A stretch of DNA of 59,726 nt, counting the filler, from Sluysia triapertura (lineage: Eukaryota): assembly GCA_046118255.1 (NCBI GenBank). It is 5 parts of 5 records of this genome, joined end to end, with 100 filler letters (N's around TTAATTAATTAA, not from the genome) between each part and the next. Parts side by side here need not be neighbours in the genome. Positions count along the whole stretch, not along the records: positions 22,392 to 35,358 come from JBJNIA010068288.1; positions 35,459 to 48,708 come from JBJNIA010050339.1; positions 48,809 to 59,726 come from JBJNIA010191529.1; 2 more parts are not named here. One strand, 5' to 3'. Both the position numbers and the translations under genes were made by a program. The notes beneath the pieces are model-generated. The model was not told where the DNA came from and ran no database searches. It was given only the letters and a program-made list of their open reading frames with translations. This document shows, one piece after another, positions 23,749 to 51,561 of this stretch (the first letter of the stretch is position 1; the number at the start of each line of letters is the position of its first letter).

Positions 23749-24933
23749 TATCCGGAAACACGAATTTTTGAAGGTCTTGCTCAGATCGATAATAAATCAG
23801 ACAATTTAATTTTGATTTAATGCAAAATTTATGGAAATATAATGATTTGAATGTAACGTTTCATTTTGACTATTAAAATAGTTATCTAACTGAAATATGT
23901 TTTTTCATTTTTAATTTCCAATAGTAATGTGATGGCCAACCCATGACCTTAGCAAATTTTATCAAAATTTATTTTAAATATAATACACATTTTCAAAAAT
24001 TTATTAAAAACATTTTTTGCATAACACTCAACCCCAAGATCTACAACTCACATTTTAAATTCACAATTCGATAAAAAAATAACTAACATCATACCACAAG
24101 CTTGTAAAATTCGTCACAACCGTTTTTATATCTTATTCCTTTTCAGATCCACCAAAATCAACTTACATTTTTCAAAACATTTCAAACCTTATAACATACA
24201 AACCACAATGATATTCAAATCCATCAAATTACATTAAAAATTCATCTAAAATATTTTATTCTTCATTTCAACTACAACCACGTTCGAAATTAACTACCAG
24301 ACACCTTCAGATTAATTTGAACATTCTAAATTCGTGATTCGTTATCATTTAATCATTACTTTCACACAAAACTCTAACGTATATTATCATTCATTCTAAA
24401 CACTCATGTTATTTCAAAATAATTAAATTATAACTTTCAATACTCAAGCTCATCTTCAATCAGAGACATTATTTCAATTAGAACATCAAGGTGTATTCTA
24501 ACATCCATATAAAGTATTCATATTGTTTCAAAATATTTAACACCTAAATCTATTTTCACTTGAAATGAGTAAATAGCATTAAAAATTACACCAAAACGCT
24601 TTACACATTATCTTATAACAACAGCCTCACTATTACACCTTAAAACCTGATCCAAGACAGGTAACAATAAGCTGTAACAACACAAGAGAATAGTAGTGCT
24701 TTGAATTGCCAGGATTTTAAATATGTTCAGAAATAATTAAAGAATTAGAAAGAAAGCTTGTGATATAAGTTTCAAAAAGAATTTATGTATTTAGTAATAA
24801 TAGTAATAATAATAACATTCTTGTTATTATTATTACTATCATCAATTTATTTTTCATTATTATTTATTATTATCATCATTACTCTATTTTAATTTCATTA
24901 TTTTTCAACTAAATTAAATTCTATCCGATGATT

Positions 24934-25057
24934 GCCACTATCACTGATGACATTCTTTAGTTGTCATCCTTGATAGTGGCTTATTGTATATTGCAAGAGT
25001 GAATAGTAGTATTACTGGTTGTCCAACCAGAGATTCACTCTGGTTGGACAACCAATC
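24934..25057 (+). promoter_or_regulatory. Twin-hairpin module of copy A (putative promoter or origin)
   Basis: gccactatca-ct-gatgaca / tgtcatc-ct-tgatagtggc stem; perfect 17-bp stem tggttgtccaaccagag-attca-ctctggttggacaacca (25016-25054) running into CCAAT; about 110 bp before the ATG. Confidence 0.65.
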
Positions 25058-25164
25058 AAAGAAAAACCAGAAAAATAGTTTAAAAAATTAAAATTGTAAA
25101 TTTCAAGTAGTAAAAAAAGAGGGTCACTGAAAAATTATCTCTCAAATTTATTGATAACTCAAAA

Positions 25165-26190
25165 ATGAAAATTTATGGTACTGTGAATATTAAAGTTTGT
25201 TATTAGGAGATATTACTAAATTGCCTCTAGAATCTGTAGTTAATTTAATTTTGATGTCTCCTTTTCTAAATAATTATGTGTCTATACCAGGAACCTTAAT
25301 TGGTGCTTTAGAAAGTAATTTGCACTTATGTGTTACTAAATTTTCTGAGGCAAAACATGAAGATATACGAAAACATTGTAATTGCTGGTTATCCAATGAT
25401 TTACCGTGTCACTTACCTTATAAACGTTTATTGTGTTACAACAGGACTTAGCAAATTTTAATTTTCACATTGTTTGTCTAACATTGTGTACAACATTTCA
25501 TCACAAAGACTGGTCTTTAATTACACCTAATTTAGCACTTGTAAATCAGAGAGCTGATAAAGTGGATATGATTAGAACTATAATTAAACCCATCGTTACT
25601 TGGTTGCGTGCCGGCATTCCGTTGGTTAATATGAATATAGTAATCTATAAAAGAGATTTAACTAAATATACATCTCAAAATGATTTAAAGGTAATAGAAG
25701 AATTTGAACGATTAAAGAAATTATTGCTTGATACTCTCATTAATAATATTGATGTACAAATTAAACAAGATATGATTTTTGTATATACGAAGATCTTTTA
25801 CATGTTAATTGATATAATTAGAAAATTGCCCGATAAGCACGAATTTAAATCGAAAAAGTTTTGCTTCAATGAACCACCAGAAAACGATAATGAAGATAAT
25901 GCTATGAATGAAGAGTTTAATGACGTATTAAAATTTAAAGAAAATGTTAAATAAACAACCAATAAAATATAGAAGTCATTTAAGCAGACACTATTCAAGT
26001 CAATTCAGCAAGAATGCTTTTTGCCCATTCAGTAGTGACAACAATGGTGTATGTATAAAGAGTGGAATTGGCTGCATCTATGCTCATACAGTTTACGAAT
26101 CGGTGTTTATCAAGTAAAACGATACAAATTATGATTATCATTCTTCTAGAATAGCAGAACTACTCATGGGTCTCATTCATCGACAATGAA
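25165..26190 (+). pseudogene. Frameshifted Macro-like (Macro-TIR family) domain, TIR-start remnant and CCCH finger
   Basis: GDITKLP..VVN...PGTLIGAL...KHEDIR..NCWLS..LP.HLPYKRLLC and WLRAGIPL...IVIY; later KYRSHL.RHY..FCPF..C.YK..GCIYAH; frameshifts near 25200, 25440, 25950 and 26050. Confidence 0.65.
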
Positions 26191-26714
26191 TTCGACTACC
26201 AACATTTTAATCATGGGCAATCAAGAAGTAAACAATTTTTGTAGTTACATTAATGATATTATAAATTTTTATTGTTATTTAGATAGTGAAATATATCGGA
26301 ATAAATTTTTGTGTGATTTTTATTTGTTTTTTAGTAATGAAGATTTTATAGTTCATTCTCGTTTTGTAATTTTAAAGAATAAAATTTTAATAGATTTTGA
26401 TAATGTGTTCAATAAATATAATGTAGTTAGTAATTTAAATTTAATTTCAAAATTCTTAATTTATCATAAAGCCAACAAGTAACAATGCAATTTGGTCATA
26501 TTATCATACTCAATTAAGACCACTTCAATTAAGCGTTTTAGTGTAACTTTCGTAGCAGCCGGGTAGCATCAATAAACGTTCTGATGAATTTACTTGTTTT
26601 AATAAGCGAATATGTGTTGAGTATACATTGTTTATTTATGTAAGTGATTGGCTATATCACTTGTATCCAGTATTATAGGATATTTTAGATTTGTTTGCAT
26701 CTACTCCATATTTA

Positions 26715-26835
26715 GAATTATGGAAGAATACTTGAGTGACATAGAGAGTAGTGATCGTAGTGATACTAGCAGTGACAATGATGAAGAAACAGTGATGAGT
26801 AGTTTTACTTGGCGAAATATGAACAATTTTTAACG
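26715..26835 (+). other. Acidic N-terminal peptide, possibly a piggyBac-like transposase remnant
   Basis: MEEYLSDIESSDRSDTSSDNDEE...FTW; a similar acidic peptide lies at 53770-53845; no catalytic domain seen. Confidence 0.25.
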
Positions 26836-27599
26836 TTTTTTGCGTCCTGCGAGTGCTATATTGCAAAATGTAGTTGTACTGAAGGGGTTGATTTAGTGAA
26901 TCATTCGGTTCTGTTCATCGAAATTAAACTTAGCAAAGGATAAATTTATGTTACGCCAATTTTTTGCAACCTTAGTTAAATATGTACCGAACAACATTTT
27001 AATTTTTATTGTTATTTGTTAAATTGTACATAGAAAACCTTAAATTTAAATGGTGAATAATGTATCAAGCTAATTATCTGCTTGGTTAGGAATGGCGCTA
27101 TTATTTCAGACGTCATCAATATTAATTCAACTAGAATTTTAATAAGTAAAATAAATAATTTTAATAATGTACACTTTATGACATAGTTATGAAAAATGGT
27201 TTATATATAAATGATCGAATTTATAATTATTCTCTGAAGGTTAGTTCTGAATTTATTCCTGAGGGTAGAGAGAAAAGTGCTATTTTTTATAGTTAAAATA
27301 AGTTTGTTCTAAATTTATTTACTCATAAATGCATTAAACTAATAATACATGTTTGATTGTTGATGATAAAGGTTTATTTAATTTTAGAATTTATTTAAAA
27401 TTATTTAAATTAATTGTATTTAATTTTAATAATTTAAATAATTTATTAACAAATAAAAGACACTCTTGACCAAAAAACATAAATTTATTTAATAAAGATT
27501 GTTAAATTTTCAGTCTGGTTGACCTAAAAATTTTAATTTACTTCTAGTAATGAATTGTTTGTGCGGCAAAAAGATACCATAGGTTTAGTGGTTCTGATT

Positions 27600-28900
27600 T
27601 GAAATTTGTTGACCTTTGGAATGTCGTCTACTTCATTGTTTCTTAATGATGTGATAAGTCTGCTTATTCTATCATATGTTGATTGAAGTTGTCGTCTGTG
27701 GCTTTGCCGCGATCAATTTCTTCAATATTTAGATAATATCTGCATCATTTGCCAAACTTAACACATATTTCAAATTCGTTGATCTGAGTACATTGTGCCA
27801 AACGTTTGTGTTAAAAAAGTGCTGTATTCGAACTAATCATATCCTTATTTTTGTTGTTGAAATCGATGATTGGATTAAATTTATTCCGTTGCTTACTTTT
27901 ATATATCGTAGCTTGTTGCGCTTGGGAGTTTAGCATTCTTTTAAACATTTGACTTTACCGAACATTTTATATGACTGGTACATTACATCTTCGTCTATCA
28001 CTTTGTTATCCAGCATAATGTGATTAACATTACATATAACAATGTTTTGTACGTTGGACTTGAGATCTATATGATCTTGATTATTTAATGATTCAAATAA
28101 CTGTTCAACATATGGTAAATTTCTGTACAACACTTAGCTACTAATTATAGTAATCTAGAACGATTGCTGCGAGCGTTTTTTTCTAATTTTTTTGAATCGT
28201 CTAGACATGATTGTGGAACATACCAATCCAACATTGAATTAAAGACATTTAATTTACCCCAATCTAATTCTGAATAAATTAATTTTATCTTGCGATCTAT
28301 CAATGATATCAATAAGTACTACACAAATAGTCATAATAATTTCTCCATTGTACTTGGTATTTTTGTAAATGATCATTTACTACAAAAGCTGTCATATCAT
28401 GTTTAATAGTTCTATTAAGATCAGATGCATTCATATTGTAGGAATATTTTGAGGGTTCTGACTTATCATTAAAAGAAAATATTTTATTAGCCTATAAAAT
28501 AAAATTAATTTCGAAAACTCAACAATGTATTGTCGTTGATAAGGTATGCTTATCCATTCATATATTTTTCGATTACTATCACTATCTTTTAATTGATGTA
28601 ATGTTGGCAAGACTAAATATAAAATGAAATCATTTTGAGCTTGATTACGAGTACCCATCAAGTCTGTCCATAAAATAGACGATAATTTTAATCGATGTTC
28701 TAAGTCAAGTTTACGGTAACAAATTTTTGTAAACTTTTGAATAAAATTTAGTATTATGATTGAAAATGAATTATCATTGTAAAGGTTTATAAAATACTCT
28801 AATTTAGCATTATTCATTGATGATGACTTTAATCGATTACACATAAACATATCAGTCACAATAACTTTTTGTCTTTAAATTGGAAACTAATTTTTTATAA
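27600..28900 (-). pseudogene. Decayed intronless cargo ORF B, function unknown
   Basis: ORF pieces 28431-28859 and 27930-28133; the frame continues past the stop (TPKRNKLRYIKVS...FFNTNVWHN). Confidence 0.55.
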
Positions 28901-29042
28901 CTGTGTCCAATTACTCTTACTATTATCTTTTCTATTCTACTTGTTCAGTGACTGAGTTTTTCACTGTTTACTTGCTTTTGTAGTACCAAAATTTTAAAAC
29001 TAATTATTTTTTGATTTGAAGGATAATTTTTATAATTTTTGT

Positions 29043-29101
29043 TGATTGGTCATTCAATCAGAAAAGCAGTACAAAAATGAGATTGATTGGATGTCCAATC
29101 A
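29043..29101 (-). promoter_or_regulatory. CCAAT palindrome of copy B
   Basis: tgattggtcattcaatca ... tgattggatgtccaatca; 18-bp arms with 2 mismatches. Confidence 0.65.
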
Positions 29102-29789
29102 CTATTATGATAGGTATGTGTGTATATTAACCATACTGAATTAGCCAACCACAAACATCTAATGAATCAGCAATTGAAAAATTGTGGCAAGCAATTGAAT
29201 TTTTGTGAGAAATCATCTGTCGTAATTGACAGAAATTAAATTAAAATTTTTGCTGTTTACATGTTAATAGTTATATAATAATAATGAAAATAATAAAAAT
29301 GGAGATAATAATGATGAAATGAAAATAATAATAATATCATTAATATAATTATATTAAATACATAGATCTCGTTTTATCTTTTCTTTTTCTTGACATATAA
29401 ATAAATAAAATTAATTTAAATAAGGTTTTATTTGGTTAAGTTGTTAAAAATGATTAGAAGTATGCGTTTAATGTTTTTTAAAAGTGTTGATGTTTGAGTG
29501 TTTAAGAATTGTGAGCTTGAAATGTTTTGGATTGATTTTGAAATATATATTTGGTAGTTTGAAATGTGAATAGTAATTTTAGTGTTGTAGAATTGTGAGC
29601 TAAAAATATTTTAAATGAATTTGAACTGTCCATTGATGATTTTGAATGTAAGTATGATTTTAATGTTATAAAGTTGTGAATTTAAATGTTTTGAAATGTA
29701 AAAAGGTTTTAATAGATCTGAGAAAGTAGGATGTAGATTGTATCTTTTTGTAATTTTAATAGGTTTTGTTTTGAAAATGAAGCCATAAT

Positions 29790-30410
29790 GATGGCGAAAT
29801 TATTTCCAATTAGGAAGATAAGATAATTTTTGATTCTGCTGTAGTTCATGGAAGAAAATATTAATTGTATTGTTAAAAAGTGTAAATATCAATTAAATAA
29901 AGTATCACAGATTCGAAAATTTATTAATAAAGTAACAGCTAAACTTAATGTTCATTCATATACTCATGTACTAAATTTAATATAGAAAAGTGCAGCAAGA
30001 AGATCTCATCAACACCTTATCCTAAGGAATTATATTGGTTGGCAATAAAAGCAAGAATATAATTCAAAATCATCACAATAATTTACAAATGCTTACATTA
30101 AGGAAATCTTGAATATCATTTAGATATAAATCGAAAATTGGAAAGCAAGATGAATATTTCATTGAGACTTAATAATCTGTACAGAATCCCACAATGATAG
30201 GTTGTATACTGTTTATGTATCAAAAATATACAACCAGTTACCAGAGAATGTCAAATTACTAGAAGATTATGAAATACATAAGGAAAAGGTAAAGTTCTTT
30301 CTGTTTCAGAAATACCACAGTGGATGATTCATTTTAAGTGCCTTTGAGTACATACTATTCAGTAGATATGAGCGTAATATAAATTAATATATTATTATTA
30401 ATATCATTAT
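29790..30410 (+). mobile_element. L2/CR1-clade LINE 3' remnant
   Basis: Broken RT C-terminus (MEENINCIVKKCKYQL..IRKFI...AAR...ELYWLAIKARI*FKII.IIYKCL) and an L2-style tail gcctttgagtac...gagcgtaatataaat...tattattatta. Confidence 0.8.
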
Positions 30411-31314: not shown

Positions 31315-31420
31315 AAAATAAAATAAAAATATATAAATAAAAATATATAAATAAAAATATAAAAATAAAAATATAAAAATAAAAATATATAAAGATTAAA
31401 TAAAAATATATAAAGATTAA
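31315..31420. repeat. A-rich minisatellite (aaataaaaatatat-like units)
   Basis: Directly visible. Confidence 0.8.
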
Positions 31421-33625: not shown

Positions 33626-35358
33626 ACTGCGATTTTATTTCCGACAAATATGCAGAGTTATTCAAAACCATTCAAACAGTCAACCGATTTACCAGTATAA
33701 AATACAAATTCAATTGTAGACTCGCTAAAAACAAAACTTAGATAAAATAAACATAAAATAAACTTTAAGAACTAAAAACAGCTTAAATTAAATTAAATTT
33801 TTTTTACACATAAAAAGTTTCAACTTTAACTTAAACATTTAAGATTAATAAGATTATTAAACATTTTAGTTTCACTGTATATTTTGCCAGATAGTTTACT
33901 ATTCCTTCCACTTCTCTCTTTATATTTTTAATACCTCTTGATACGTTCCCAGTCATTCAATTCTTATATTTGTAATAAACTTTATTATACAAAATATCAC
34001 TGTCAACCACAAACATATCATATTTTATATACATTTTATAGCGTTCCTTTCCTCAAACAATCACAACGTTAATTCAAACAATAACACATCAGAATCTGAT
34101 TTATTCAAAAAATTAATACTCTACACGCTCAATACGAATTAATATTAGATCAAATATAGAAATAACTTTTCTTCTACGTAATCTATGCTGTTCAACAGAT
34201 TTTCAATATATAATTAATGTTTTACGAGTCCAAGTTGTAACCGATTTTTACTTGTATGATGAGCAGAATTATGTTTTTTGAAAATAAAATATTATTGTGC
34301 AGAGAAATTTGCATTCAAATAAATCGAGAATCTTACAGTCGAAAAACTCAGTAGTAATCTTTTAATATTTTATGTATCCAGTAAAATTTTGTTCAAACCT
34401 TTTAATAAGCATTTTTATTATAAAGTGAGATTTTTTATTGTATATTAAAACAGAGTATCATAATTCATTATTTTTGTTATAATTGAGAAACTTAAATGAA
34501 AAATAATTTTAGTCTATAATAAATTACAGTTTGGAATAAGCAGTATTAAGATTTAAATAAATCTTAAACGAACTTTGATACTAACGTATACTATAATGAA
34601 TTTATAATGAATGACTTCTCTAATGGCCGAGTAGAGAGTTAAACATTTCCTTGAAAAACTAAAATTTAATATGTTAATGTAATTGAAATTAAAACAAAAC
34701 TTTACTATAACAATCTGAGTCAACATAAATTGTTGCATAGTTTTCAATTAGATATAAACAAGGGTTTTGTCATCAAACTATCATCAACCAGAGTATTTTC
34801 ACGGATTTGGGTTAAAATCAAACAATGTTAAAGCTCACTTAATCAGTCTTAAGATAAACAATATCTTTTCATGTTCAGTAAAATCCACTGGGTTCAATAT
34901 CTATATATTCACATTGAAAAATGGTTTCTCATACAACATCGACTAAATAAACCCAAATACTTAACATTAGAGCAGATTATTAAACAGAAACAGCTATTTT
35001 AAGAATAAAGTATGATATTTTAAATGGTTTTCACTGGTTTTAATGTGTTTTTATAGTTATGTTAGATAGAGTAGATCGTGACATTATTTTGTGACGTGTT
35101 TCTCATTTGGTTCAATAAGACGGTTTGAATAATATTTAAAAGAAAGAAGACAACATGTTTTGTAGAATAACGTGAAGACACATGAGGTTTACATATATGT
35201 GGGTTAAAAAAGAGAAAATATTGGAATATCATTACGGAACTCCGTATTTATTTGACAAATGACACCTGAAATAAGAAACACAATTTTAAATTGCTTTTGT
35301 ATTACAGGAAGTGCCCCATTTTTAAATCTGAAAAATTGAATTAACCAGCATTTTCAGC

Positions 35359-35458: not shown

Positions 35459-35652
35459 TGAGGGCTTGGTTGGACGAATTCTTTGAGTCAAGACCGGGAG
35501 ATTTCTATCGCCGAGGCATCGAAAAACTTATTGAATGATGGGAGGAAGTTGTAAACAACAACGGAGAGTATATTATTGATTAAATCGTTGTAGTATTTTT
35601 GTTTAAAATAAATTTGAAAAAAAACGCTCATGAATTATTCCTCAACCCAATA
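35459..35652 (+). mobile_element. Mariner transposon 3' end with TIR and TA
   Basis: RAWLDEFFESRPGDFYRRGIEKLIE*WEEVVNNNGEYIID* (35461-35583), then aaaacgctcatgaattattcctcaacccaa-TA. Confidence 0.93.
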
Positions 35653-37042
35653 TTATAGAGACTTTTCATTTATACTTGTGATTTATTGAAGAATATATCG
35701 AGATTCTGAATTTATTTAATTATCGAGTTTTAATTTGATAATTTAAAAATGAAAATATAAAAAGATACAACACTTTTTATACAAAATAGATATTTATAAA
35801 AAACGACAAGATAAGTGTTTTAAACAAAAAATAATTAACAATAAATAAGAAAATAAATGTTCATCACATTAGGTGTTTTTTTCTAATGCGTTTCGATGAT
35901 GTTTTAATAAAGATTTTACAACGAGCGCAAAAGTCTTATACCTTATGTAAGTAAGTACAACTTGGGCAACAAAAATTACAAATTCAATTTTAGAAATCAG
36001 TGGAATTCCGGATCGGATATATGACGATAACTTCTTAGCAAAATAGCGTTGAATTTAGTCAATTTTTGTTTGCCGGATTAGAAATAATTTGACAATTTAC
36101 CACTGCTGCTTCGTTGTAGTAAATGATAAACTCTGTCGAATTTGTCAGTTTACCACCAATAGCAAAGTGATGGATTCGTTAATAAGAATCCTCTTTGTTA
36201 ATTTATTCGTCTACTTATTAAGATGAATTAAAATAATCCATTATTTAAAAAGTAAACATTTATTTCCATTCAATATTTTCATTATTTTTTTCTAAAAATC
36301 CATTAAAATTTTCTATTTAATATATTTATTTTTCAATTTCTAAAATTTTTCATTTTGTAAATGCCCTCAAATATTGCTACACTATTTTAATCGTTACGTA
36401 TTTTTAATGTTGATTTGTAATGGAAACAAAACCTGAAAATCTAAATAAATTTTTTAATTTTCAATAAAATTGCTAAATAAATAAATCAATTTATTTGCTT
36501 TTAACTAAATGTAAATAAAATAAAAATTAAAAAACTTAACAGCTGCATAATTAAATATTAGTGTAATATTATTCAAATTAAAAAATAAAGAACAGCTTAA
36601 ATCAAATTTCGAAAAGATATAAAACGACAAAACTAATTCCAATAACAGTGTAATAGAAATTGGAAACAATATTTGTCATAAAGAATTTTAGAGTTAATTA
36701 TTAAAGGATTTTCTGATGTTAATTAGTCAATATCTTATCGAAAAATTAGTAACTGGAGAAAAAAACATTCATTACAGTCAAAAGTAAACAGACTATTCTT
36801 ATTCAAAATTATTTTAATAAGTTTCTTGCTGTTATGTTGACGCATCCTTACGGAAGTAACAAAATATGACTCAAAATCTTAAATTATTTATGCTAGTTTA
36901 AGCTAGCAACAAAATCTTAAATTCAATATTTTAAAGCAATAAAGGAAGACATTGCATAATACCACTTGCTTACTATGCAATTCAACTTTTGAATAATAGT
37001 AACTTAAAGTAATAAAGTAATTTAACATTAATCAAGATAATA

Positions 37043-37112: not shown

Positions 37113-38750
37113 TTATAGTCAATTACACTGTTGGGAAAATGATTGATTAAATCTTACAGAATAAAAGTACATAGGTAAGTCACCAACATATCTAGACCGT
37201 TGGATTTCTAAGAAATTAATATTTTGCGATTAATGATTTTAAATTTAAATTAATTAACGACACAACAATAATAAAGATAATTTAACTAGTTTCACAATGA
37301 AACTGTGATATGCATGAAGATAGTAAGTTAAGAATAACGAATTTTTTATTTTATTTTAGTTAATATTTTGTATGTCTAATATGCAAAAAAAGAACGCAAA
37401 AGTTTAGGCTTAGCAAGTTTAATTAAGATAAATAATACAAATGGAGTATTTTAACTAAGATTGCTAACAAGTTTTGAGGAAAAAGATTTACTTAACTAGA
37501 TGGATGATGGTGCCAACATTGCACATATAGGATTATTAGTAGAAGGAAAATATTAGTAGATACAGATTTGATAAAGATTTAATAATGATAGAAATCGAAT
37601 AAACAATTTGTATGGAGTGACAATTAGCGACAAACAAAGAGTTAATTAAAAAATTTCATCATTCAAATATTACAAGGCAAAAATAAACAAAAAAGGAAAA
37701 GCAGTCAGACCACAATCTTTAAATATTTAAAATCATTGAAATGATTTCGAAATAAAATTATTATTATATTAAGAACAGAGAGGTTTAATGAATTAATAAT
37801 TACTGTGAATAAAGTCGCTGAGTGTTTCTTAGAAAAAGCTTATGGAGGCGCATCTACAAGAATAGTGAGCAACTAGTAACGTAAAAAGTAAATCAAAACT
37901 ACCATTAATCTTTACAGTGCGCCTATGCAATAGCTAATTTGAGGGTCTAATGTAAGTATTTAATTTTCAAAGATCTTTGATTAAATCTTATTAAAATGAA
38001 TCTATTTACGTTTATTTACTAAAAAAGATATTTTTCAAATAATATAACACTAAACAAAATATCAACTGGCCTAAATAATTATAAGAACAAAATTGTTATT
38101 ATCAAAATCAAATTTTATCAATTAAATATAAAAATATAATACCTATAAAAATGTTAGGAACAAATTTTTTGAGGTTTTATTCACCATTATTAATCAAATA
38201 TTTTAATTATGATTTTGTGGCTATCTTAAAGCCAGTCTTAAAAAATCAAATGAGTTTAGGTAATATTTTATGGATCTGTTTGGATTGCTCAACTGTGGAT
38301 CTGGAGACGAATGAAAACATATAAAATCATAAAATGAAGGAGAAACTGATACAAATTGATGGATTGAACATTATAAACATTGTTGAAATAAGAATCATGA
38401 AAAATAAAACATTTATAATAATATTAACAGCTAAAGAATATCTTAAGGTTCCAAAGACCTATATAAGGGTTTGAGATCTTATGGAAACTTGAGATGCATT
38501 AAAAATAACCTTAAAGGTACCTTTGAACATTAGAACCTTTAGATCATTTAAGAACTTAGTAACTTTTAAGTATCTTGGTATATCAATGAGCATTTGAGAT
38601 CCTGTAGTAATCTTATAAAATGTTTAAAATCTTTGAAATAGTTGAGAAATAAAATCATTGTTATTGGAATTAAGAATAAATCTAATATAATAATAATTAA
38701 TATGAAGAAGTAGAAAAGGGAATCAGAGAGGCGAAAGTGAAAACATCTAG

Positions 38751-41723
38751 TGTGATGGCCGGTGTATATTGATAATTGATTTTAAATTAATCATCAACAA
38801 ATTAATATTAAGAAATTTAATATCATTATTGAACTTTATTTTACAAACTAAGAATTTCAAATTACTAAAGAAATAATAATGGAAACACATATATTTAGTT
38901 TGAGTAATAACTTTATAAAAGTACCACAAATCAAATAATTTTGCTACAGCAAAGTATTTAGCGTCGCCACACATTTCATACAATTCGTTCAAATCATTGA
39001 AAAGAATATTAAAAAAATGTTTATATAACATTCTCATTTCTTTAAAACCACCAATGTTATTTATTTCATTACATCTGCTGACTACCATATCCCACAGCTC
39101 GGGTGTTATCTTCTTAAACTCACCACATGCGACATTTTGACTATCCGTAATAACCGCTTGATAGCTTGACGAGATCAACGGTGATTTAGCTGCAAGTGAT
39201 TTGAAAAACGAACTGATAACAGTAAAAGGTTGGCACGTATTTGAAATCATAGGATATTCAGTATTATGATCGTCTTCTATACCATGTTGCAAAAGATTTT
39301 TATAATTACTAAAATCAGAAATGAAAATTCTTCCTTGAAATATATTTCTTTAAACACAAAAGCAACAATAATGCCATTACACATTGATCTGTGAAATTAT
39401 CCAATGCATCTTGGATAAACGTAAGTTTTTTTAAATGTAATATATTCGTTTTTAAATTTGTTTTAAACTGTTACACCACCAACTAATAAATTGTAACAAT
39501 TGAGTACCCTTAATTTAGGGTGGTTATCGATTAAATCATAAAACCAACGTAACCTATGAAAAAATAGTTTTGTAAAGTCACAAATTTCACATTATGTAAT
39601 CTATTTAACAGTTCTTTTTGTATCTGTCGTTTAGACATTTTTAATATGTCTATGTGACGTTCCAAGGCATCTGCTACGTTAAAAGTGTGCAATACAACAG
39701 ATCTACCATCATGATCAACACTATTAGCTAATCTAACTGCAATATCAAGACAACGACGAGACATAAGCACTACCTGATCGAAGTTATGATATTTGTCGTA
39801 TAACATTAAGCAAACTTCATCACAACTTCTAGTTGGATCCATAAACCTGGCGAACTGCCTCGCGCATTCTAATTCACCTTTTCTCTCACTTGAACTACAT
39901 CTACATAATGGTCTCATAACAATCTCTTTAAAATCTAATAATAATATTTGACTAACAATCTCTTTAAAATTTTGAATCTCCCAAGGTATATCCTTCATGT
40001 GCAATGATAAATCACTCATTTCTGATACTAATCTAGTTACTTTAAAAGGCCTTCTTGTATACAATCTTCGACAAACATTGACCACATAAATCTTCTGTAC
40101 AGTAACCTCATGACCTTCTGTTAATTCCTCGACTTTGAGTCACATCTTTATGACGTGCTTGATCGATACTTAAAAGTTTATCATGAGTAGATACACTTTT
40201 GACCAGTACTCTAGACATTTTTGAACAATTTTGAATACTTTTGTATTCTAACTTTATCTTTTTAAAATTCTGATAACTTTTATATTAACCTTTCATAAAA
40301 TATAGTTTTCTGAATCCTACCTAGATTATTCATTAAAAATTCAAAAATCTTTTTTAAAATGCACTCTTTGTTCTTTGAATTCTTATTCCAACTTGCATCA
40401 ACTAACAATTTTTCAAATTTGACCTTCAAGGTTACTTATATATGACAAATTTTTGTTTATAAGATCACAGTGTTTATACAAAAGCTTTTCAATAAAATTA
40501 TTTTTCAATAAATAAATCATTTTAAACTCAAACTTGAGTCAAACATGTTATTTCACTTAAATTTATTTTAGTTCATATATATACATGTAAATAAAAACAA
40601 AATCTTTCTTTTATTCGACAATAGAATAATCAATAGCATTTTGAATATGCATAATTTATTTCATGTTACCGCAATTTTCATATTATTTTATCCAAAATAT
40701 GGAGCAGTAAAATATTTTAGAACCTCGAAAAGTATTTTCAAATGCAAAAATAAGACTGTTTGTAAATTTGTCTAATTTAAATTTTTAAAATTGCTGCATC
40801 ACCAAAATGGTAAACTTGAACTTTTAAACATTTAACGCCTATTATTATTGACTAATGTAAAGTGATCAACACAATAAACAAGATAAACGAAATCATGAAA
40901 CCAATTTTTAATCAGTAATTTTTAAAATTATTTAATATAAGAAATTGAATGATGAATTCAAGATTGTGTCAAAGTTTCACGTAACATCGTGTCTTGATAT
41001 AATTCCGGTTGAATTATTTAACGATAATTTGATGAAATTTCGGGATTGTTAGGAATACCGTTGATGGAATATCCCTTTTTAATATTTATTTTTACTGCTA
41101 CTGGTTAATGAGCTCGGTCCAACTGAAGAACGATAAACAATGTACTTGCTGATATAGTAGATTGTCCTGGGATTTACACCAATCCATAAACCAAACAAAT
41201 TATTGATATATAATGATTCATCTGAAACAGAAGATCCAAATCGATGATATATTTGCGTGAATTATTTATTTTCACTTTGTTTGATGTTCATTGCTACTAA
41301 CCACGAATATATCATAACGTAGGCCTTGTGGAGATTGTGAACCTTGTATGGTCACGGTCATGAATAGACTTGAAAAAAGAAAAAAACTACAAATGAATTG
41401 TTTTTACAAAAATTCGAAATATCTTTATTCATCTTCAAATAATAAAAAGAAGAATGCAAAAATTGACACTATGATGGTGTAGTTGGGTAGAGCGATATTG
41501 ACGGATTGAAATATGGTTATTGGATCACTTACTGTAATTTTAATTGAATTACGTTGTATTTTAGGTAAAGTGTGTTAATATAATATATTTAAAATTGGTA
41601 ATATGTTTGAAATATATTATATTTTATGTGTTATTATGAGTATAAGATGTGGCGGAGGTGTCATGTGTGTTGGATGTTTGCGATTGCGTGTGTTAGGGGT
41701 TGGTGAATGAGTTGAACACTACA
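38751..41723 (-). mobile_element. Cargo cassette copy E (divergent subfamily)
   Basis: 3' end reads ggccatcaca on - (38760-38751). The 3' module YYFFSNLKFLV resembles YLFFSNEDFIV of copy A. Candidate 5' end tgtagtgttcaac at 41723 with a C/A arm. No CCAAT hairpin or TSD seen, so the 5' link is tentative. Confidence 0.5.
38850..40218 (-). pseudogene. Frameshifted intronless cargo ORF E, function unknown
   Basis: ATG at 40218 (MSRVLVKS..), frameshift near 40135 into ORF 39531-40085, further break before ORF 38747-39292; composition is clearly more coding-like than the flanks. Confidence 0.65.
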
Positions 41724-42039
41724 GGATGCATAGATGATTATTGAACTGATTATCACCTGATGGTGCTGCATACCACCAATTTCCATTTTTGTGACCAACG
41801 ACTGGAACAAATGAACGCGGCCTTCCTTCCTTCTACATTGGATTACTAGGAATTAAAAATACTGAATGTTAATTATTTCCAGAAATTATTCTCAAAACAA
41901 TATTGAATAAGGGCTTCAAAACTACGCTTTAATTGAGTAGCATTATGTTTTACTACGAAGAACTTTAGCAAACACACCTAATTTTTAATAACACATTTAA
42001 GAGGGTTACTTGAATCATAAATGTATTTTTAAAAGACTT

Positions 42040-42653
42040 CGGAAAATCTAAGTGAAATATAAGTAACGAATTACGAAAAGCCTGTTTATACATAATTGCT
42101 AAATTTTAACATTGTTATTAATTTTATTACATTGTTTATATTGGACAAAAATTTTCTCATGATGTTCGTTAAAAATAATACTCAAATCGTACATTTTCAA
42201 ACTAAAATAACTATTTAGGATCGCATATATAACACAAATGATGAACATCCAAATAGAAAAATATTTCAATAGGAAATTTAACTGATATTTCAAGCTGCAA
42301 ATGTTACGAAAGTGTTAGTTTAGGGTTCATTGGTTTTGAAAAATAATCACGAAATCTTGGAACACCTTTGCATTTTCCTTTAAAATTCACGGTTATCATT
42401 CAATTTACTGTGTAGTCACAATAAATGTTCGATTTAATTTCTTCTATGAAAATATAAAATTTTTAATCATCGTATCCTTATGAATATCGATCGTTTTCAA
42501 TATTACAATTTATTAATTTTTAAATAATTTTACACAAAATAGTAATAATAATAAAAGAATAACTCAACATTTAATAATTCTTCAACATTAAGTTTTCGAT
42601 CAATTAAAGAATACTTTTGTAATGATTTGTGATTGTAACCGATTTTTACTTCG
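42040..42653 (-). mobile_element. Decayed LINE RT fragment interrupted by cassette C
   Basis: Minus strand RSKNRLQ and YDLSIIFNE resemble the RT motifs SYL.NR.Q and DLG.IFD; ttgtaaccgatttttactt also occurs at about 34235. Confidence 0.45.
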
Positions 42654-43628
42654 TGTGGTGGACAACCTTTATAACTATTAAATTTTATTAAAAAAATTAA
42701 TTTAATTTTTCAACACTTCAACATTCAAATATCTATCTCCTATACACTCACATAATACTTCATCCACCAAAACTAAGTCACATTCACAATCTCATAATAT
42801 ACAAATCTCATTTACACCTAATGTCATCAAATTACATAACAGATCCATTAAAACATGTAACTCTACATTTATAACAATCAAACCTTAACTACTTTTAAAA
42901 TTACCCACTCGACATCTTCGAATCAACAGCAACCTTTCAGATTCATCATTTATTATTGCACAATCACTAACAACACAAAAATAACAACACTCAAAACAGC
43001 AATAAAACAAATCATAATACCAACATGGTACATCAACCTTTCAAATATACTAAGAGTTGTACTATAATTTATCTTTTTACACTTATTAAACCACACTTTT
43101 CTGAATAAATCTTATGGTTACAATCTTCTAACATTCAAATATTACTCTCAATCAAGAACTTGTCCATTTCACTATATGGCATAAAAACTGCTATCGCACC
43201 TTGAAATGTTAAGTACATATGCTAAATTTACTTAGATTAATCTGTACGTGAAGATTTTAACTTTAAACATATTTAAATGCAGTACAATATGTCCAGAAAT
43301 CCTTAGGAGTTAAAGAAAGATTGTTTACAGTTTTTAAGGAGTCCAAAAGTTTATGCAATGTAATAACAACAATAACTTTAACATCGCTATTGCTATTGCA
43401 TTCAGTGCAAAATGTTCAAGAGAAAGAAGGAAAGATTTTGTGGATTCAGAAGAAACGAAGAAATGTATGCGTATATAATAACAATAATTATAATAATAAT
43501 ATCTATAACAAAATAATAATAATAACAATACTAATATCAATAATAATAACAATAATAATGATAATCAAAATAATAATCTAAATGAATAAATTAATAAAAA
43601 TCGTAGTTTAAGCCAACTTTGTTACTTC

Positions 43629-43797
43629 CATCATCATCGGCGACATTTCATTTAACAGTTAAAATTATATGTCAGCGATGACGATGACGGCCATCATGGT
43701 TGACTAAATTATCATCAAGTAATTGCTATATTGATTGTCCAACTAAAATCGTGTATGTATAGACATCATTTACACGATTTGGTTGGATAACCAATCA
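43629..43797 (+). promoter_or_regulatory. Twin-hairpin module of copy C
   Basis: catcatcatcg-gc-gacat / atgtc-ag-cgatgacgatg; tgattgtccaactaaaatcgtgta / tacacgatttggttggataaccaatca. Confidence 0.65.
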
Positions 43798-43957
43798 TTA
43801 ATGTAATTAAAAAAAGAATTTATGTTACAAATTTTAATCATAATTACAAAAAAAGCTCAAAAGTAAATCTTCATTTTGCAATTTTTTGTCGAACCAACAA
43901 AACGAATATTGTTATAAATTTCAACAAAAATTTTGAAAAATTTACAGTTGACAAGAG

Positions 43958-45190
43958 ATGGATGAAAATTCACAGTTCTGTTTCTCACTAAATCCAGAAA
44001 AAAAATCATATTTTCAAATCAATCAAAGAATGAATTTATAAAGTTTTTGCGAGAGAGATATAATCTTATGTGTCGAACTATTGATTTCTATATGAAGTAT
44101 TCTTTAGTATTAACTGAGAACAACAAATTATCTGGTTTAAAAATTGTGCATGTACACAATTCAGGTTGCACATTTCCAAAATTAGAATGGATAAAGAGAT
44201 TGTCACAAGTTAATAGTTTTAAATCATCGGATCTAATTCGCACATGCCATGATAGTTTGTTTTTAATCAAGGAACAAGTTCAGTTATTAACATGCAACTC
44301 GGTAACGAGGTATATTATATATTTCGACAATCGTTTAATTATAAAGACTATATTCAAAAAGGAGAAGAGAAATATTATAGTAAATCAAGTTAATATGGCA
44401 TATGAATTCATTATTTTCTTAATCTATTTTTTAAAAGACCACAATCGTAACAAAGGCAATATCACCGTGGCATTCAACATTTTAATGACCGTTCTTAATA
44501 AAGAAAACATGAAATATACAGTTCAAGATGATATTTTACTAAATGCTACACATCTGTTCATATTCAGTAATTGTTTAGTTTTTTTACATGTTAAAGACTA
44601 AATATGTAATAAATGTTTATAGCTTTCTCACCTATCACATTAATTTTCATAACAACATTATGATTACTGATCTTATGATTACCACAAGTAATCTATGTCT
44701 CATGAGTATTCTAAGAACATCGGGTTTGTCAATACTTTTAAATCATAATAGAAGTACCGTTTTTGAAAAGTTTAAAGATCATAAATTTGCTCAAAGTGTT
44801 CCAGATATTATTGATAATTTTAAAGATGTTTTTATGAGTATTAGTGGACGCGTGAGTAACATAACAATTCATGAATTTTATATTATTGTCACTGAGTTTA
44901 TGTTAGAATTACCCATGTTCGATACTACAGATCTTCTCGCCATGTTTGAAAGATGCTTATTTCAAAATAATAACAAACTTAGTTCTAGAGAAGTCAGTTG
45001 CGCATGCTGCTTGACTTCCCAAAATTCAAATACAAATGTGTGGAATTCGGAAATTTCATGGTATAATAACAGTGTAAATTTTTCTTTTGTAAACTCATTA
45101 TACAATTTTAATTTTAATTATTATTTAGACGATAATATAAAGGCAAGGCCAATGACGTTACACGAGGATGCAGCAATAAATTTTAAATAA
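43958..45190 (+). pseudogene. Frameshifted intronless cargo ORF C, function unknown
   Basis: ATG at 43958, frameshift into ORF 44047-44601, overlapping ORF 44588-45190; no introns apparent. Confidence 0.6.
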
Positions 45191-46459
45191 ATTGTTACGT
45201 TTAAAGATAAAGAAATTTTTACAGTTTAATTTGTTTATTTCATAGACTTTAGTGAATTCTTGATTTTAAACTTGCATAAAGATACTAAATTTAACAGTAA
45301 TAAAAAAATTAGATCAAATGATATGAATAGAGATTATAATTATTTTTATTCCCAAGTTAAAAAACTTATCATTAAAAGAAATTGTCTTCATATAGGTCTA
45401 GCGTCTCAAGACTTAATCATATTATTTCGCTCCAAATTAAAACCTATAATTTATGAAATGAATCAATTAGATTGTTCCCAGTTAAACCTAATATATCAAA
45501 ACATTTTGTTAACATCTCCAAATTGGCATCAGCTAAATTTAATATGTCCAATTCCAACCTCAGTAAACTTTAACACTTTGATTTGTGCATTGATTGTTGT
45601 GATATGATGAACAATTGATGTATTAATATTGTTAGTTATTGATATTTTGCATTGGTAGTGATTTTTTGGTTTCGGATTTTTCAAAAAAAATGTAAGTGAT
45701 TTTAATCATTTAATTTTAATTATTTAATTATTTAACTATAAGTAATTTATTAAACCATTTTAATTTTATAATCAAACTAGAGTAAAATGTTAATAACTAT
45801 TTTAATTATTTTGTTTTAATACATTAAAACTATATAAATAAACATTTTCACAATATTTGCATAACATTTTGATAACATTTTGTAAAATTTTTTGCAACAG
45901 ACTTCGAAATTCTGGCTACGACTCCAGTAGTTTTTTAATATTCTTTAATCATTGTGAATCTACATTTTACGTTAGTTTAATTATTATAAGGTTCGATACC
46001 CTAGAGTATCATTAGTAAAATATACTTAAATTTATTTAATTCATTTGGATCGTATAGTGGATCATTAGCAAAATATATTTTTAAATTATTTTATTGAGTT
46101 AACTAATTAAGTTAGTTCTGTAATTTATTATTATTATTGACAATTCTTATAAATTTTTAATCTTTTGTATAAGTTTTATAATAAAGTTTTTCTTTTTAAT
46201 TCCTTAGTCAATTAAAATAGTTTTAAAATTTGTTAACACTTAAAATTCCCTTGCTTTCGAGAAGCTAGAATTTAAATCTAGCAAATAAAATTTGTTATAA
46301 CGATTCCATAAAACGGAATCTACGTAAAATTACTAAATAAATTTTAATTCTATTTATAATCAAAGTTTTTCTAGATACTACAATACTACAAACTTTCAAT
46401 TATATTTACATCCTAAATTTGATAATTATCAGAGAATCTTAACAATAGGCATTAATAAA

Positions 46460-46600
46460 TTTTACCTCCAGATATGATTGAGCATTAAGGTTCGATTAGC
46501 ATATTTTTGAGACTTATCTTGATTTATAAAATCCAACGGCTGGCCCTAGCTGGTAAGCCCAGTACGTTGGTGAACTCACTTTAAATTAAGTTTTATTCTA
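46460..46600 (+). repeat. Structured dispersed repeat R2, copy 2
   Basis: acctccag...aaaatccaacggctggccctagctggtaagcccagtacgttggtgaactcac matches 52-170. Confidence 0.75.
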
Positions 46601-48404
46601 TCACATTTACTTCACTTTTCTCACAATTATTTATCTATTATTATTTGTCATTTTATTTACTTTATTTGCATCAATTCCATTGTTCATTTAACATTATAGG
46701 AAACGCCGTGTTTCGAATACGGTCGTAAACTAGACTCAAAATTTATTATTAAAGAAAATGTGTTAAAAATTAAGATACCGTTTTTATAATATGGTAATAA
46801 TATATCACTTAAAATAACTTGTTTTGATTAAACTATTTAAAAAAAATATCATTTGATAAAAGGAATAGACCTTAGAAAATCATTTTGTGTAATACAATCT
46901 TTTACGCAATTTATTAATACTAATAATAAGAAAATTATCGACTCTATTTTACGTCCAATTTTTACTTCTGATAATTACTACTTACAACTTAGCCTTTAAG
47001 TATGTAAGACTAAGATTAAGAAAATCATAAATTAAGACATAAATTAAGAAAATCAAAACACAAATCAAACCGAATTCTTGCATTTTGTACATAAGATTTC
47101 CTATATACAAAAAAAACGAATAAGATAATTAATATTTATATAATGTCTTTATATCGTCACTATGTTACTATAAATCGTAAGTTAATATAAGTTCAAATAA
47201 AATTATAAACATCAAAGTAAAAAATTTATGATCAAGTTATTTCAGAATCATTTTAATCACATTGACATATGGCTAATTATCAGATATTGAAAAATTTAAA
47301 ACATAAAACGATAATCTTATTCTAATTTATTGGAATTATTGTTTGGCATTTATATATAATATAAATATTCATTTATTTAAATGAAATTTATTTTATCATT
47401 TCAATCCAGAACTAAAATGAATTAATTGCATTAAATTTTTCAAAAACATTTTAAACATTATTCGAATTACAAAATCAAATAATTACTATTTCAATTTAAG
47501 ATAAAGTAGATAAAACAAAACTATTTAGTAATTAAGCACAATTTATGGATTTTTTAAAAGTAATATGATATATGATATGTTCTTGAAATTAACAACAGTA
47601 AATATTTATGAATTTTATGTATTTAAAATATTGTATTAAAAATGCTCAAACTAGTCATTATATTAGAAATTATTTATAGTGTTTTAATGTGTTCCAAAAT
47701 AATTATACTATTGATAATTATTAACAATGAAAAAGATGAATACAAAATTTATTAATTATAATTCGAACGACGAATAAAATAAATTGTTTTTATTTGTTTG
47801 TTTTTCACAAATTTGACAAACAATATTAGTTTTATTGTCATTTTATGATGGACAAAATTAATACCTTGTCCATTTTTTGTACAAATTTTAATACTTGATT
47901 GCACCATCTCGTGATCTAATTAACTATTTCTGCTACTTGTTTATTTTATCAGAACAAATAACCTTAACAGATTTTATTTCCATCCTAGATTATTAAACAC
48001 CATAAAACATAAGTATTGCTGTGGTTTAAAATAATTAACAATTTAAAATAATTTAAATAATTAATAATTTTCTTAAACGAGTGAGACTGACATTTATCTT
48101 TTATCTTTAATCATGTTTAATTTATTCAACAGATGACCTTATTAAGAAGGTTCAATTACTCTGATCTTTAAATAAAATTAATTATCTTTCACCTTTTCGG
48201 TACCCAATCTACTATAATCCAATAAAAATTATATCAATAACACGAACTTTTATTTTTTTTCAAGAATCGAACTAAAATTTGCAATTGAAGCTGCTCTAGC
48301 TTCTACTTTATGCAACTCAATTTTGTAAATAAGATTTAACCATCAGTAACATATAAATCAGATTGTATAAGGATATTTTATATAAAGTTGAAATATCCTT
48401 AACA

Positions 48405-48492
48405 TGAAATAACTGACCAATTATTTTGAAATAACTGACCAATTATTTTGAAATAACTAATTAACCAATTAACATGAAATAACTGACCAATT
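48405..48492. repeat. 22-bp tandem repeat (tgaaataactgaccaattattt), about 4 imperfect units
   Basis: Directly visible; preceded by inverted pair aaggatattt/aaatatcctt at 48369-48400. Confidence 0.85.
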
Positions 48493-48708
48493 TACAGATA
48501 AATAAACAATTGTGCGACAAGAAGGTCGATTTGTCTCACTTGGAAATGATTTTAGTTACTACGAAATTTAAATGTTCTGCTAAATATAATTTCTGCTAAA
48601 AATTAAACTACAATAAATGCTACTGCAAAAGTCTGGAAATTGATATCTTCAACTTGTTTTTGTCTCGATAAATTATGGTATTAAATTGTGTTATTAAATT
48701 ATGATTTA

Positions 48709-48808
48709 NNNNNNNNNNNNNNNNNNNNNNNNNNNNNNNNNNNNNNNNNNNNTTAATTAATTAANNNNNNNNNNNNNNNNNNNNNNNNNNNNNNNNNNNN
48801 NNNNNNNN
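48709..48808. other. Artificial contig spacer
   Basis: N block with TTAATTAATTAA. Confidence 0.98.
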
Positions 48809-49213
48809 AAAATACTTCAACCTTTCATTAAGTACTTCAAACCATTCTATCTAATGTATAAATCTTGTTTTCAAATTATAAATCTTCAATAAGTTTTAAT
48901 AAATTATTCTAACACTCTTTATTTCATTTACAACCTAAACCACAATATCTTTCAAAAACAAGTTTAAGATAACTTTAAAAACTTCATTATCATACTGCGA
49001 AGCAACAACCACAAATGATACATTATACACTTAGTTACGGTTGTCCCTTCACAGTATAACATTCGTTTCTTTCCTTTTATTTCATTTGTGTAAATAGAAA
49101 GAGAAGAATATAAAGAAAAAGTTCGTGTTTAAGATTTTCAAAGATTTATGCGGTTTTAAATTTTTATAATAATAATAATAACAATAATTTTACCATTTTT
49201 ATTATTATTAATA

Positions 49214-49256
<43 letters not shown>

Positions 49257-49311
49257 CATTACTGTTAATTAACAATTAAAAATAAAATTGTTTGACGGTT
49301 AAACTGTTACT

Positions 49312-49476
49312 GCCATCACCAGTGTTGACAGTCTATGTCACATTTACATTAGGCTGTCAGCCCTGATGATGGTCAGTCATCAGTATTTACATATTACAAA
49401 TTGTATCATTGATTAACACACACACCACCCAATCAGACTATTTTTATCTTACTTACTAGTAATCTGATTGGGTGGA
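49312..49476 (+). promoter_or_regulatory. Twin-hairpin module of copy D
   Basis: ccatcaccag-tg-ttgacagtcta / taggctgtcag-cc-ctgatgatgg (two G-T pairs); ccacccaatcaga / tctgattgggtgg perfect 13 bp. Confidence 0.65.
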
Positions 49477-49630
49477 TTAAAAGTAGCAATAAAGAAAAAT
49501 TAAAAATTTCAATTTTTCAGACTAACTCAATAAACTAATAGAATTTTTTAACAATAACTTTTGGCAATAAAAATACACTGGTGACAAAAATAAAGCAGTT
49601 GATTATACGTTATTTAGCAAGAATTTTAAT

Positions 49631-51204
49631 ATGGAGCATTTACTACGATATTTCAATTTTAAAGGTGTAGAACTTATGAAAAAGAAATTAGTTAGACAAT
49701 GTCGTGAAAACTAATGTTAATCAACTTTACCAATACGTTTTTTGCAGGTTATTCAAGAATATCCTGATTCTAATTTGAAATGGAATCAATTCTTAAATGG
49801 TAAACCTATTTGTAATACTTGTATGAATAAAATAAAATCATCCTTCAATTATGATATACAGTGCCAAGAAATAATGAATTGGAAAAAGGAATGGATTACG
49901 AAGACACGTGATAACAGTTTGATTAATGATTTCAATTCTAATAAATTGTTTTCTGATTGATATCGATGTGTTCGGTGCAATAAATGGTGACAAGTTAGTC
50001 TGTCAGTGGAAATAATGCCTACAGAATTAGATAACTTCTCATGTAGTTTTATAATAAAACATACCAAAGAATTCAGTATATAAAGTCAAATCTAGAAAGA
50101 TTTTTGTTTTCCTTAGTTTATGAATTGCCGTTAGAATCTTCAATTAATTTAGAATGTTTCAATAATTCAGCTTTAAATATTGTTGGAATAAACCCAACTG
50201 TAACTGTACTAGATTTTTCTCTACCTGTAAATTGTAAAGAAGTTCTTCGAAATTTTCATGCTTTCAAGCAGGTGTCACACATTAATTGTGTTGTAGAAGC
50301 TATTAATCCCGTGGTTATGGATGATTGTGAAATAAGCATGTTTCTAGGATTTAAAGCTAATCAGAAATACTTACGTCTTAGTTTTCGAAATCTTATGTTA
50401 TTTTTATGGGTATCCGATGCTAAGATTCTAAAGTCTAGCCCAGATAGCGGCCTAAAAACAAATGAAAAGTTCGAGTTGAATGTAGATGTTCTAAGAAAAT
50501 ACATTATCGTCGACAGAAAATACATAAATCTTTTTTGTAAATTAGAGCATGTTAATTTAGTTAAAACATTTATTAAAAAGACCGGTCTATTTAATAAAGA
50601 TGTATTGCCAAAGGGCAGATTAAGGATTATAAAATTACAAAAATATAATTACGATGAAATTCAAGAGAGTTTAAGAGGTTCAATGTTCATCAGCGAAAAG
50701 GTAAGAAAACTTAGTAATTATGAAAACAATAAAGAAAAACCAGCTATGTTTGGTAGTCATTACGATGGTCGATTATCCTATACAAACTATGATTGTCAAT
50801 GCAAATTATTTCCGATTAATCCTGTTACGTTAGATGATTTTCGTGACTTTATGTTATCAAGTAAGAAGATAATTCTAATTATAAAATTTGCCGACTTATT
50901 CTACATTATGTTTTACTTTGTTAGTTTTAAGTTTACATTTTTATATGATCATCATTTAGATAACAAGCAATCTTACAGGATCCCGAAAATGCAACAAGAA
51001 GAGCGATGGGCAACAGATACTAGAAATTTAGAATCAAAATTCATTATTAGAACAATTTTTAATTTAAAAATTATAATTAACTTTTTTAGTTGTGAAATAA
51101 AATTTTATAATAGTTATCGTTTGTTTATAACTTATTATTTTAATACCAATCTATTAAAATCACGTCGAAATGCTATGCTTAGTTTTGAAATAAACTTTAT
51201 ATAA
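49631..51204 (+). pseudogene. Disrupted zf-CW plus divergent Macro-like domain cargo
   Basis: *YRCVRCNKW*QVSLSVEIMPTELDNFSCS fits zf-CW (W.QC..C.KWR...F/WYC) with W and R codons changed to TGA; frameshift near 50047; LPLESSINL...HINC aligns with LPLESVVNL...HCNC of cargo A. Confidence 0.6.
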
Positions 51205-51561
51205 CGGCAAAGAAAAAATTAAGTAAAGCTATAAGATGCTAAAAAACAAAAGGTTGAGATACTTAATGGAAATTATAAGAATATATTATCTTAACTCCAA
51301 TTCTACCTGCAACCATAGTTGTTCGTAATAAGCACGAACCAAACTTTAAAACATCTACCTTCCTAACAAGTTCATCGCTTAAACATATTTGTTATACAAT
51401 GAGTTTAATTGTGGAACTTTATAACAATATTTATAAGCCCTCAAAGAGAGCCAAAGTTTTAAAACTACATGTTCAAATCATTAATTTACTTCAAAAATTA
51501 TTCTTAAAGCATTATTTTATGTCATATATAACAACCCCATCCACTATAATTTTGATTTTCA

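Follow-up and report, generated by a model that had tools for sequence, protein, structure and literature searches.

We analysed a 59,726-nt stretch of the Sluysia triapertura genome (GCA_046118255.1; hereafter the window; GC = 25%, 4 gaps) and studied a family of gene-containing repeats within it. The copies are designated by letter: A (23928), B (27465-29790), C (42654), D (48810), E (41723), F (2378), G (7993), J (58106) and K (22671). The results showed that C is a single insertion of about 2.9 kb that encloses its gene. We propose, with about even confidence, that the units are solo long terminal repeats (LTRs) of several related Gypsy-type (Metaviridae) subfamilies, with a protein-coding gene lying inside the LTR. 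New here are the far ends of the units and the empty site of C. The first-pass annotation of this DNA had described a non-autonomous, gene-enclosing unit with a promoter-like region; this description held for C, through its empty-site joints, and more weakly for A, through a 5-bp duplication. Among the three origins suggested at that stage, gene-bearing solo LTRs gave the best fit.

Contigs from sequencing run X1 were mapped onto positions 42500-45700, that is, onto unit C only. Among the 11 joints listed, three skipped all of C: they connected 42645-42651 with 45567-45588 and had net lengths of 2919, 2919 and 2916; two of these equalled 42654-45567 plus 5 bp. The joints removed the whole unit, indicating that the arm, the hairpins and the open reading frame (ORF) of C arrived together. 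Unit C (42654..45567, +; alternative end 45575) is therefore one insertion within another repeat, and the empty sites are probably paralogous sites of that host repeat. The host repeat (42634-42653 and 45568-45800) starts with TGTAACCGATTTTTAC, about 19 bp before C, and the same start occurs at about 34236 (34236-34255).

The far ends proposed earlier had to be moved in part: that of A lies at 26477 and that of C at 45567 or 45575, not at 45531, and the ends of B are undefined. Unit A (23928..26477, +) measures 2550 bp, runs from TGT to GCCAACA, and is flanked by AGTAA at 23923-23927 and 26478-26482. Unit E (41047..41723, -), a likely ORF-less relative, runs from TGT to CCTAACA over 677 bp with ATCC on both flanks. 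In 2000 random-flank trials, a match as good as that of A arose in 105/2000 (5%) near the expected end and in 469/2000 (23%) anywhere up to 5 kb; the corresponding chance was 34% for C and 308/2000 (15%) for E. A and E thus have the TGT..ACA termini of a Gypsy solo LTR, as does C only if it ends at 45575. All seven starts with the family's terminal motif lie within one mismatch of TGTGGYG, the 5' integrase motif of CsRN1, which is exact at 4/7 and has one mismatch at 3/7. Neither terminal inverted repeats (TIRs) nor terminal direct repeats were found in any of 6 unit definitions (200 shuffles), and the two ends matched at 4-7 of 15 positions.

A solo LTR is the simplest reading of a unit that has TG..CA ends and a short duplication but lacks TIRs, terminal direct repeats and an enzyme (PMC10886601). 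E also has the look of an ORF-less LTR, with CCAAT, TATA and AATAAA. In the course of events that we propose, a retroviral-type integrase would have produced both the TG..CA termini and the duplications of 4-5 bp. The gene would have entered the LTR when a parent element underwent template switching, and would have been copied along with it, and LTR-LTR recombination would afterwards have deleted the interior. The CCAAT/hairpin block would serve as the promoter of the cargo, the subfamilies would have exchanged modules at the AAT tract, and the copies in the window would now be dead and decaying.

Two orientations of such an LTR were considered. We lean slightly towards the arm being U3 (the unique 3' part), with sense cargo at the position of R (the repeated part). 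There is also a good chance, just short of even, that the arm is a GT-rich U5 (the unique 5' part) when the opposite strand is read, in which case the cargo would lie antisense in U3. In the arm-first orientation CCAAT precedes the ORF, and 44 bp separate the AATAAA of E from the end of that unit. Read in the opposite direction, E has one TATA at offset 160 and one AATAAA at 394, followed by a GT-rich stretch. The available part of PMC3601003 gives this layout for U5 and describes U3 as less conserved than R and U5, which would fit the abundant arm.

Several points weigh against solo LTRs. A two-LTR parent, gag, pol or integrase was not seen; the six-frame Pfam read-through covered 35459-48709 and gave 0 matches, and the remaining window was read as stop-free frames or short pieces. 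No polypurine tract or primer-binding site was found at the 7 starts or the 6 candidate far ends, an absence that is expected for solo LTRs yet leaves their LTR identity unproven. A gene of 1.2-1.5 kb inside R would be unusual. Ends are defined for just 2 of the 4 long units, B and D having no defined pair. The flanking duplications are individually weak (chance 5-34%) and unequal in length, being 5 in A and C and 4 in E. The right end of C set by the empty sites, 45567, reads ..AGTAAA with flanks CTTCG/CTTTA (3/5 matching); the end set by sequence alone, 45575, reads ..TAACA with flanks CTTCG/CTTTG (4/5). The empty-site contigs, probably from paralogous sites, come from X1, a single run of a single study, of unrecorded kind and containing 0.30 of C's words. 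Finally, the 19 substitutions listed in C's ORF include 3 silent changes vs 4.1 expected.

The first-pass annotation had placed an ordered backbone in A-D. The 5' part proved real, with a TGT start, a C/A-rich arm, an AAT tract, two strong hairpins and a CCAAT site; one of the reported blocks is absent from D, and the truncated arm of D resembled none of the others more closely than shuffles did. The motif TGT-R-R-Y-G..CA(A/G)C, fitted post hoc to these same sites, had 7 matches in the window (2378-, 7993+, 22671-, 23928+, 41723-, 42654+ and 58106+) vs 0.27 per local shuffle (n=100). A C-skew of 0.46-0.83, which is not part of the motif pattern, followed all 7 starts. The partial copies reported at 2378, 7993, 22671, 41723 and 58106 all fit motif and skew, and F and G have nothing more in common with the other copies.

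Arm likeness exceeded that of 100 local shuffles in 6/45 pairs (A-B, A-C, A-K, B-C, C-K and E-J), which bore out the backbone in this comparison. The C/A-skewed arm of A (23928..24690, +) is related to those of B (about 29400-29790), C (42654..43462, +) and K, with z 9.1, 8.4 and 14.2, respectively. K (22392..22671, -) is an arm start cut by a gap, and J (58106..58376, +) has an arm related to that of E (70% over 290 bp). The arm of D, truncated by a gap, exceeded shuffles in 0/9 pairs. A further C/A-skewed stretch at 54917-55302 (-) starts with TGTTGGTAACC and ends with the reverse complement of TGTGATGGCAACC; it has no significant arm likeness. For the atatgtYcagaaa block, A (24721) and C (43287) had exact copies, B (29398) one with 2 mismatches, and D none.

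The AAT or AAT/ATT tracts follow at 24790..24890 (+) in A, 43473..43579 (+) in C and 49159-49265 (+) in D, and beyond them lie the hairpins. These are hairpin 1 (24926..24987, z -6.0) and hairpin 2 (25016..25058, z -8.6) in A, hairpins 1 and 2 in C (43612..43797), and those at 49302-49385 and 49425-49475 in D; no strand is assigned to them. In keeping with the earlier claim of a further hairpin in A, C and D, 6/8 hairpins folded better than all 200 shuffles (z -3.4 to -8.6); the other two, both in B, did not (z -2.2 and +0.4). Hairpin-block likeness was highest for C-D (z 10.2); A-C was reached by 0/100 shuffles and A-B by 1/100, and the remaining 3/6 pairs failed the shuffle test. Changes on both sides that keep the stems were seen at 6/21 and 6/13 base pairs, among 3-4 sequences only. 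Neither strand folded consistently better, so RNA and DNA structure cannot be told apart and an RNA role is unsupported. Rfam gave one microRNA match, on hairpin 1 of D, below threshold. A pattern search for hairpin 2 found 3 loci on 2 contigs, otherwise dissimilar to the window. Hairpin 2 of A is a perfect 17-bp stem whose terminal CCAAT site faces the ORF. By a pattern fitted post hoc, the window holds 5 ..CCAATCA sites, all within A-D and one facing each ORF (for example, at 29051 in B and 43789 in C), which we take to be NF-Y sites.

A 3' module had been reported as clear in A, C and D. This was not borne out: 0/15 pairs of the last 250/300-bp stretches exceeded shuffles, the best at 13/100. 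Summed contig depth along C was 1459-9911 over the arm; between the hairpins and the far end it was 99-674 (130-674 over the cargo), compared with 7-22 for single long pieces. Summed depth is not copy number and gives an order of magnitude only; at that resolution, C-type copies number in the tens and arms are about ten times more numerous. The roughly tenfold drop falls at the AAT tract and not at the border of promoter and cargo. Kinship is likewise a mosaic, in which the arm joins A, B, C and K and the hairpins join C and D. The depth drop and the mosaic kinship together suggest module exchange at the AAT tract, with hairpins, cargo and far end forming one module of a subfamily, joined to an arm that is more common; faster divergence beyond the tract would yield the same depth pattern. 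In C, depth is similar from the hairpins through the cargo to the far end, so the cargo looks inherited with its subfamily and not freely swapped. The phrase "fixed backbone, interchangeable cargo" therefore overstated the case: the backbone is 65-75% alike among copies and mosaic, and no 3' module is common to them.

Next, the coding zones were considered. Stop-free frames longer than those of shuffles (0/300) occurred on the arm-first strand in 5/6 units (A, B, C, D and F, not G). The ORFs of 1-1.4 kb described previously are, in A-D, all broken into frames of 79-385 aa. The zones are 25194..25954 (+) in A, with frames of 85 and 176 aa; a stop-free 147-aa frame at 28431-28874 (-) in B; 43966..45190 (+) in C, with two overlapping frames of 211 and 203 aa split at about 44579-44601; and 49571..51204 (+) in D, including a 385-aa frame at 50047-51204. 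Nor is the absence of introns secure, since a candidate GT..AG intron of 57 nt that includes a pyrimidine tract was seen by eye in D (49691-49747, +). An alternative genetic code was rejected because stops of all three kinds are mixed in the cargo zones.

The cargos are mutually unrelated; the first-pass annotation had called them unrelated or only distantly related. DNA pairs showed no relationship save a marginal B-C score (1/6), and 1/31 protein pairs reached p 0.013 (A-D, with LPLES..HxNC seen by eye), which is not significant after multiple testing. In Pfam, no cargo or UBR frame among the 16 proteins submitted rose above cut-off, the SF3B3 exon described below alone passing; a zf-AD-like match upstream in D's coding zone was weak and below cut-off. 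PHROGs gave 0/11 convincing matches, PDB sequences no credible match for 3/3 cargo frames, and the 5.8-billion set no relative for D (near, longer) or for C's first frame. In the ESM Atlas, D drew weak nematode F-box/FTH-type look-alikes (0.87-0.90, low recognition) and F drew nothing. Scans of viral contigs (2/2 queries) and metagenomes found no relatives of the cargo, and the single-sequence fold of D had a pLDDT (predicted local distance difference test) of 31. With no relative found by family, structure or database, the cargos of A-D are orphans, with no sign of host-gene capture in the searches made.

Traces of selection were sought in C. Among 12 indels listed of 28, 4/6 inside the coding zone were multiples of three, vs 0/6 outside (two-sided p 0.06), a hint that the reading frame mattered while the family spread. 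Of the substitutions listed for C's ORF, most occur in the window's copy alone, a pattern in keeping with neutral decay once it had inserted.

A single passenger-like sequence was identified, namely a broken copy of UBR1/2 (N-recognin) at about 38750-40139 (-). It shares its strand with unit E and lies some 0.9 kb past the best-defined end of that unit. It matches P0001, a protein with zf-UBR and ClpS domains (E 8.7e-19), and stays colinear with it for 196 residues, through a frameshift and with no intron. If E were instead a 3.4-kb unit including this copy (flanks CATCC/GATCC), its flank match would be within chance.

Of the other explanations, the one that survives best, although we consider it unlikely, is that the units are non-autonomous DNA elements with unlike ends that carry orphan genes as Pack-type elements do and are moved singly by a DDE enzyme of retroviral type (Ginger-, Polinton- or Gypsy-integrase-like) acting in trans. 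It would account for the insertion of C as one block including its gene and for the lack of a visible two-LTR parent, and the word TGGACAACC of C's start recurs in hairpin 2 of A, as a transposase-binding site might. According to the available part of PMC2836005, Ginger1 and Ginger2/Tdd likewise have TGT (TG..CA) termini, 4-5-bp duplications and lengths of 2.6-7 kb, but they also possess a transposase, and their TIRs measure about 40-300 bp. The units showed neither feature, and no TIR extends beyond TGT/ACA in any of the 6 definitions. The far ends also share no sequence (0/15 pairs), which one transposase would need. The Pack-type DNA transposon suggested by the first-pass annotation fails the same TIR test. 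Ginger, Pack-TIR elements and miniature inverted-repeat transposable elements were rejected because TIRs of at least 40 bp occurred in 0/6 definitions, and TRIMs (miniature retrotransposons with terminal repeats) and large retrotransposon derivatives because direct repeats at the unit ends did (0/6; 200 shuffles).

It is less probable still that only the front module of about 1.1 kb is mobile, as a shorter LTR or a HINE-like repeat, with the ORFs being independent retrocopies or orphan genes alongside that use its promoter. The missing common 3' module would follow, contig depth is far greater over the arm than over the cargo, and the best-defined ends of E leave out the UBR1/2 copy. However, the empty-site joints of C delete module and ORF together, C's cargo is itself multi-copy (130-674 vs 7-22), and the flanking duplication of A encloses the ORF.

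A one-LTR gene shuttle, in which a jump of reverse transcriptase onto another RNA created a promoter-gene-end cassette, appears improbable. Such a unit would integrate and re-amplify singly, without a two-LTR parent, and its subfamilies would trade modules of promoter plus gene at the AAT tract.

It is very improbable that the units are integrated pieces of a multipartite DNA virus whose segments have a common region, as in nanoviruses or polydnaviruses: each unit does carry a single orphan ORF, without a recognisable host relative, behind a common hairpin-rich non-coding region, but 2/2 cargo queries had no relatives in viral contigs (the lone pattern match there being otherwise dissimilar), no end-to-start joint occurred among the 11 listed (contigs drop rare forms), the common region is 65-75% alike and mosaic, and the window has a single TAGTATTAC, located in A, vs 1.2 expected. 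Multipartite circular Rep-encoding single-stranded DNA (CRESS) viruses carry a conserved nonanucleotide in a stem-loop of every segment, circular forms and a Rep segment. A CRESS segment was rejected on the nonanucleotide, TAGTATTAC lying outside both stems of A at a chance-level count. The viral origin offered previously found no support.

The remaining units are less complete. Unit B (27465..29790, -) has undefined ends and weak hairpins. Unit D (48810..51368, +) lost its 5' end at a gap, and its candidate far end, CCTAACA at 51362-51368, is assigned by resemblance only. Unit G (7993..9095, +), a candidate short form of 1103 bp with flanks GTTTT/GTTTG, contains a decayed coding remnant, and its end is uncertain. 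Unit F (1230..2378, -) has the terminal motif, a short arm and a 216-aa orphan frame with an internal duplication; no far end was found for it. A 99-aa orphan frame at 846-1145 (+) converges on F's ORF.

The window also contains intron-split host genes, namely an SF3B3 exon (E 3e-71 against PDB SF3B3 chains) and, at about 15.6-21.3 kb (-), one coding for a coiled coil; by these genes the host is a eukaryote, probably an animal. No tRNA was found in the window. Within a probable SF3B3 intron lies a strand-biased, hairpin-1-like hairpin cluster (7040-7200, +; -32 vs -17 kcal/mol). Another repeat family, marked by the palindrome GGTTG-N6-CAACC, has 3 copies (12818-13021, 23635-23726 and 54727-54930), one just upstream of A. 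A repeat pair of 450 bp, 68% alike, occupies 11014-11457 and 56791-57265, and a short repeat pair with a third look-alike by eye lies at 91-169, 37170-37215 and 46524-46599. Beside a gap, 35461-35580 (+) presumably resembles the C-terminus of a mariner transposase, for which Pfam gave no match. An LLETGS stretch at 13806-13913 (+) is one that we take to resemble a decayed retroviral protease motif, without Pfam support.

Solo LTRs are normally non-coding debris that lends promoters to neighbouring genes. If the gene-bearing solo LTR reading is true, every solo site would be left with a complete expression cassette, a gene behind its own CCAAT promoter, and numerous orphan genes of a single animal genome could have arisen in this way. 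Our literature search found no description of protein-coding cargo in animal Gypsy LTRs; Repbase, Dfam and the Burro paper lay outside it, and the family may already be catalogued.

We finally compared the units with known systems. Helentron-associated HINE/DINE-1 elements make no target duplication and have sub-terminal inverted repeats and a 3' hairpin; their microsatellite and hairpins are similar to those of the units, whereas the TGT..ACA ends with flanking duplications are dissimilar. LTR-mediated retrocopies likewise capture genes by template switching and place them under an LTR promoter, but as the available part of PMC5131818 describes them, they lie between two LTR-element segments and their parent gene is known. 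The units carry the gene inside a single repeat, and database searches of D and C's first frame found no parent gene. The planarian Burro/GYPSM1 and the giant Gypsy element Ogre likewise have multi-kb LTRs, accessory ORFs and thousands of copies; the likeness is by description only, and the accessible part of PMC6431247 places their accessory ORFs in the internal region, unlike those of the units.

The solo LTRs of CsRN1-like animal Metaviridae, in the available part of PMC3601003, have the same TG..CA short inverted ends, a TGTGGYG-like motif, 4-5-bp duplications and CCAAT/TATA/AATAAA signals (of both of which the units carry candidates), and one conserved and one variable half. Training lengths there are 170-700 bp, compared with 2.5-2.9 kb here, and the units differ further in their 1-1.5-kb protein-coding zone, AAT tract and twin long hairpins, and no parent was seen for them. 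The TRIMs Cassandra, Helenus and Ajax likewise carry cargo in the LTR, exist mostly as solo LTRs and make 4-5-bp duplications; as far as the available part of PMC10886601 goes, their cargo is a small RNA polymerase III gene and the elements are shorter than 1.3 kb, whereas the units are protein-coding with a polymerase II-type CCAAT. If the solo LTR reading is true, LTR-internal cargo would thus be extended from the small RNAs of Cassandra and Helenus to proteins.

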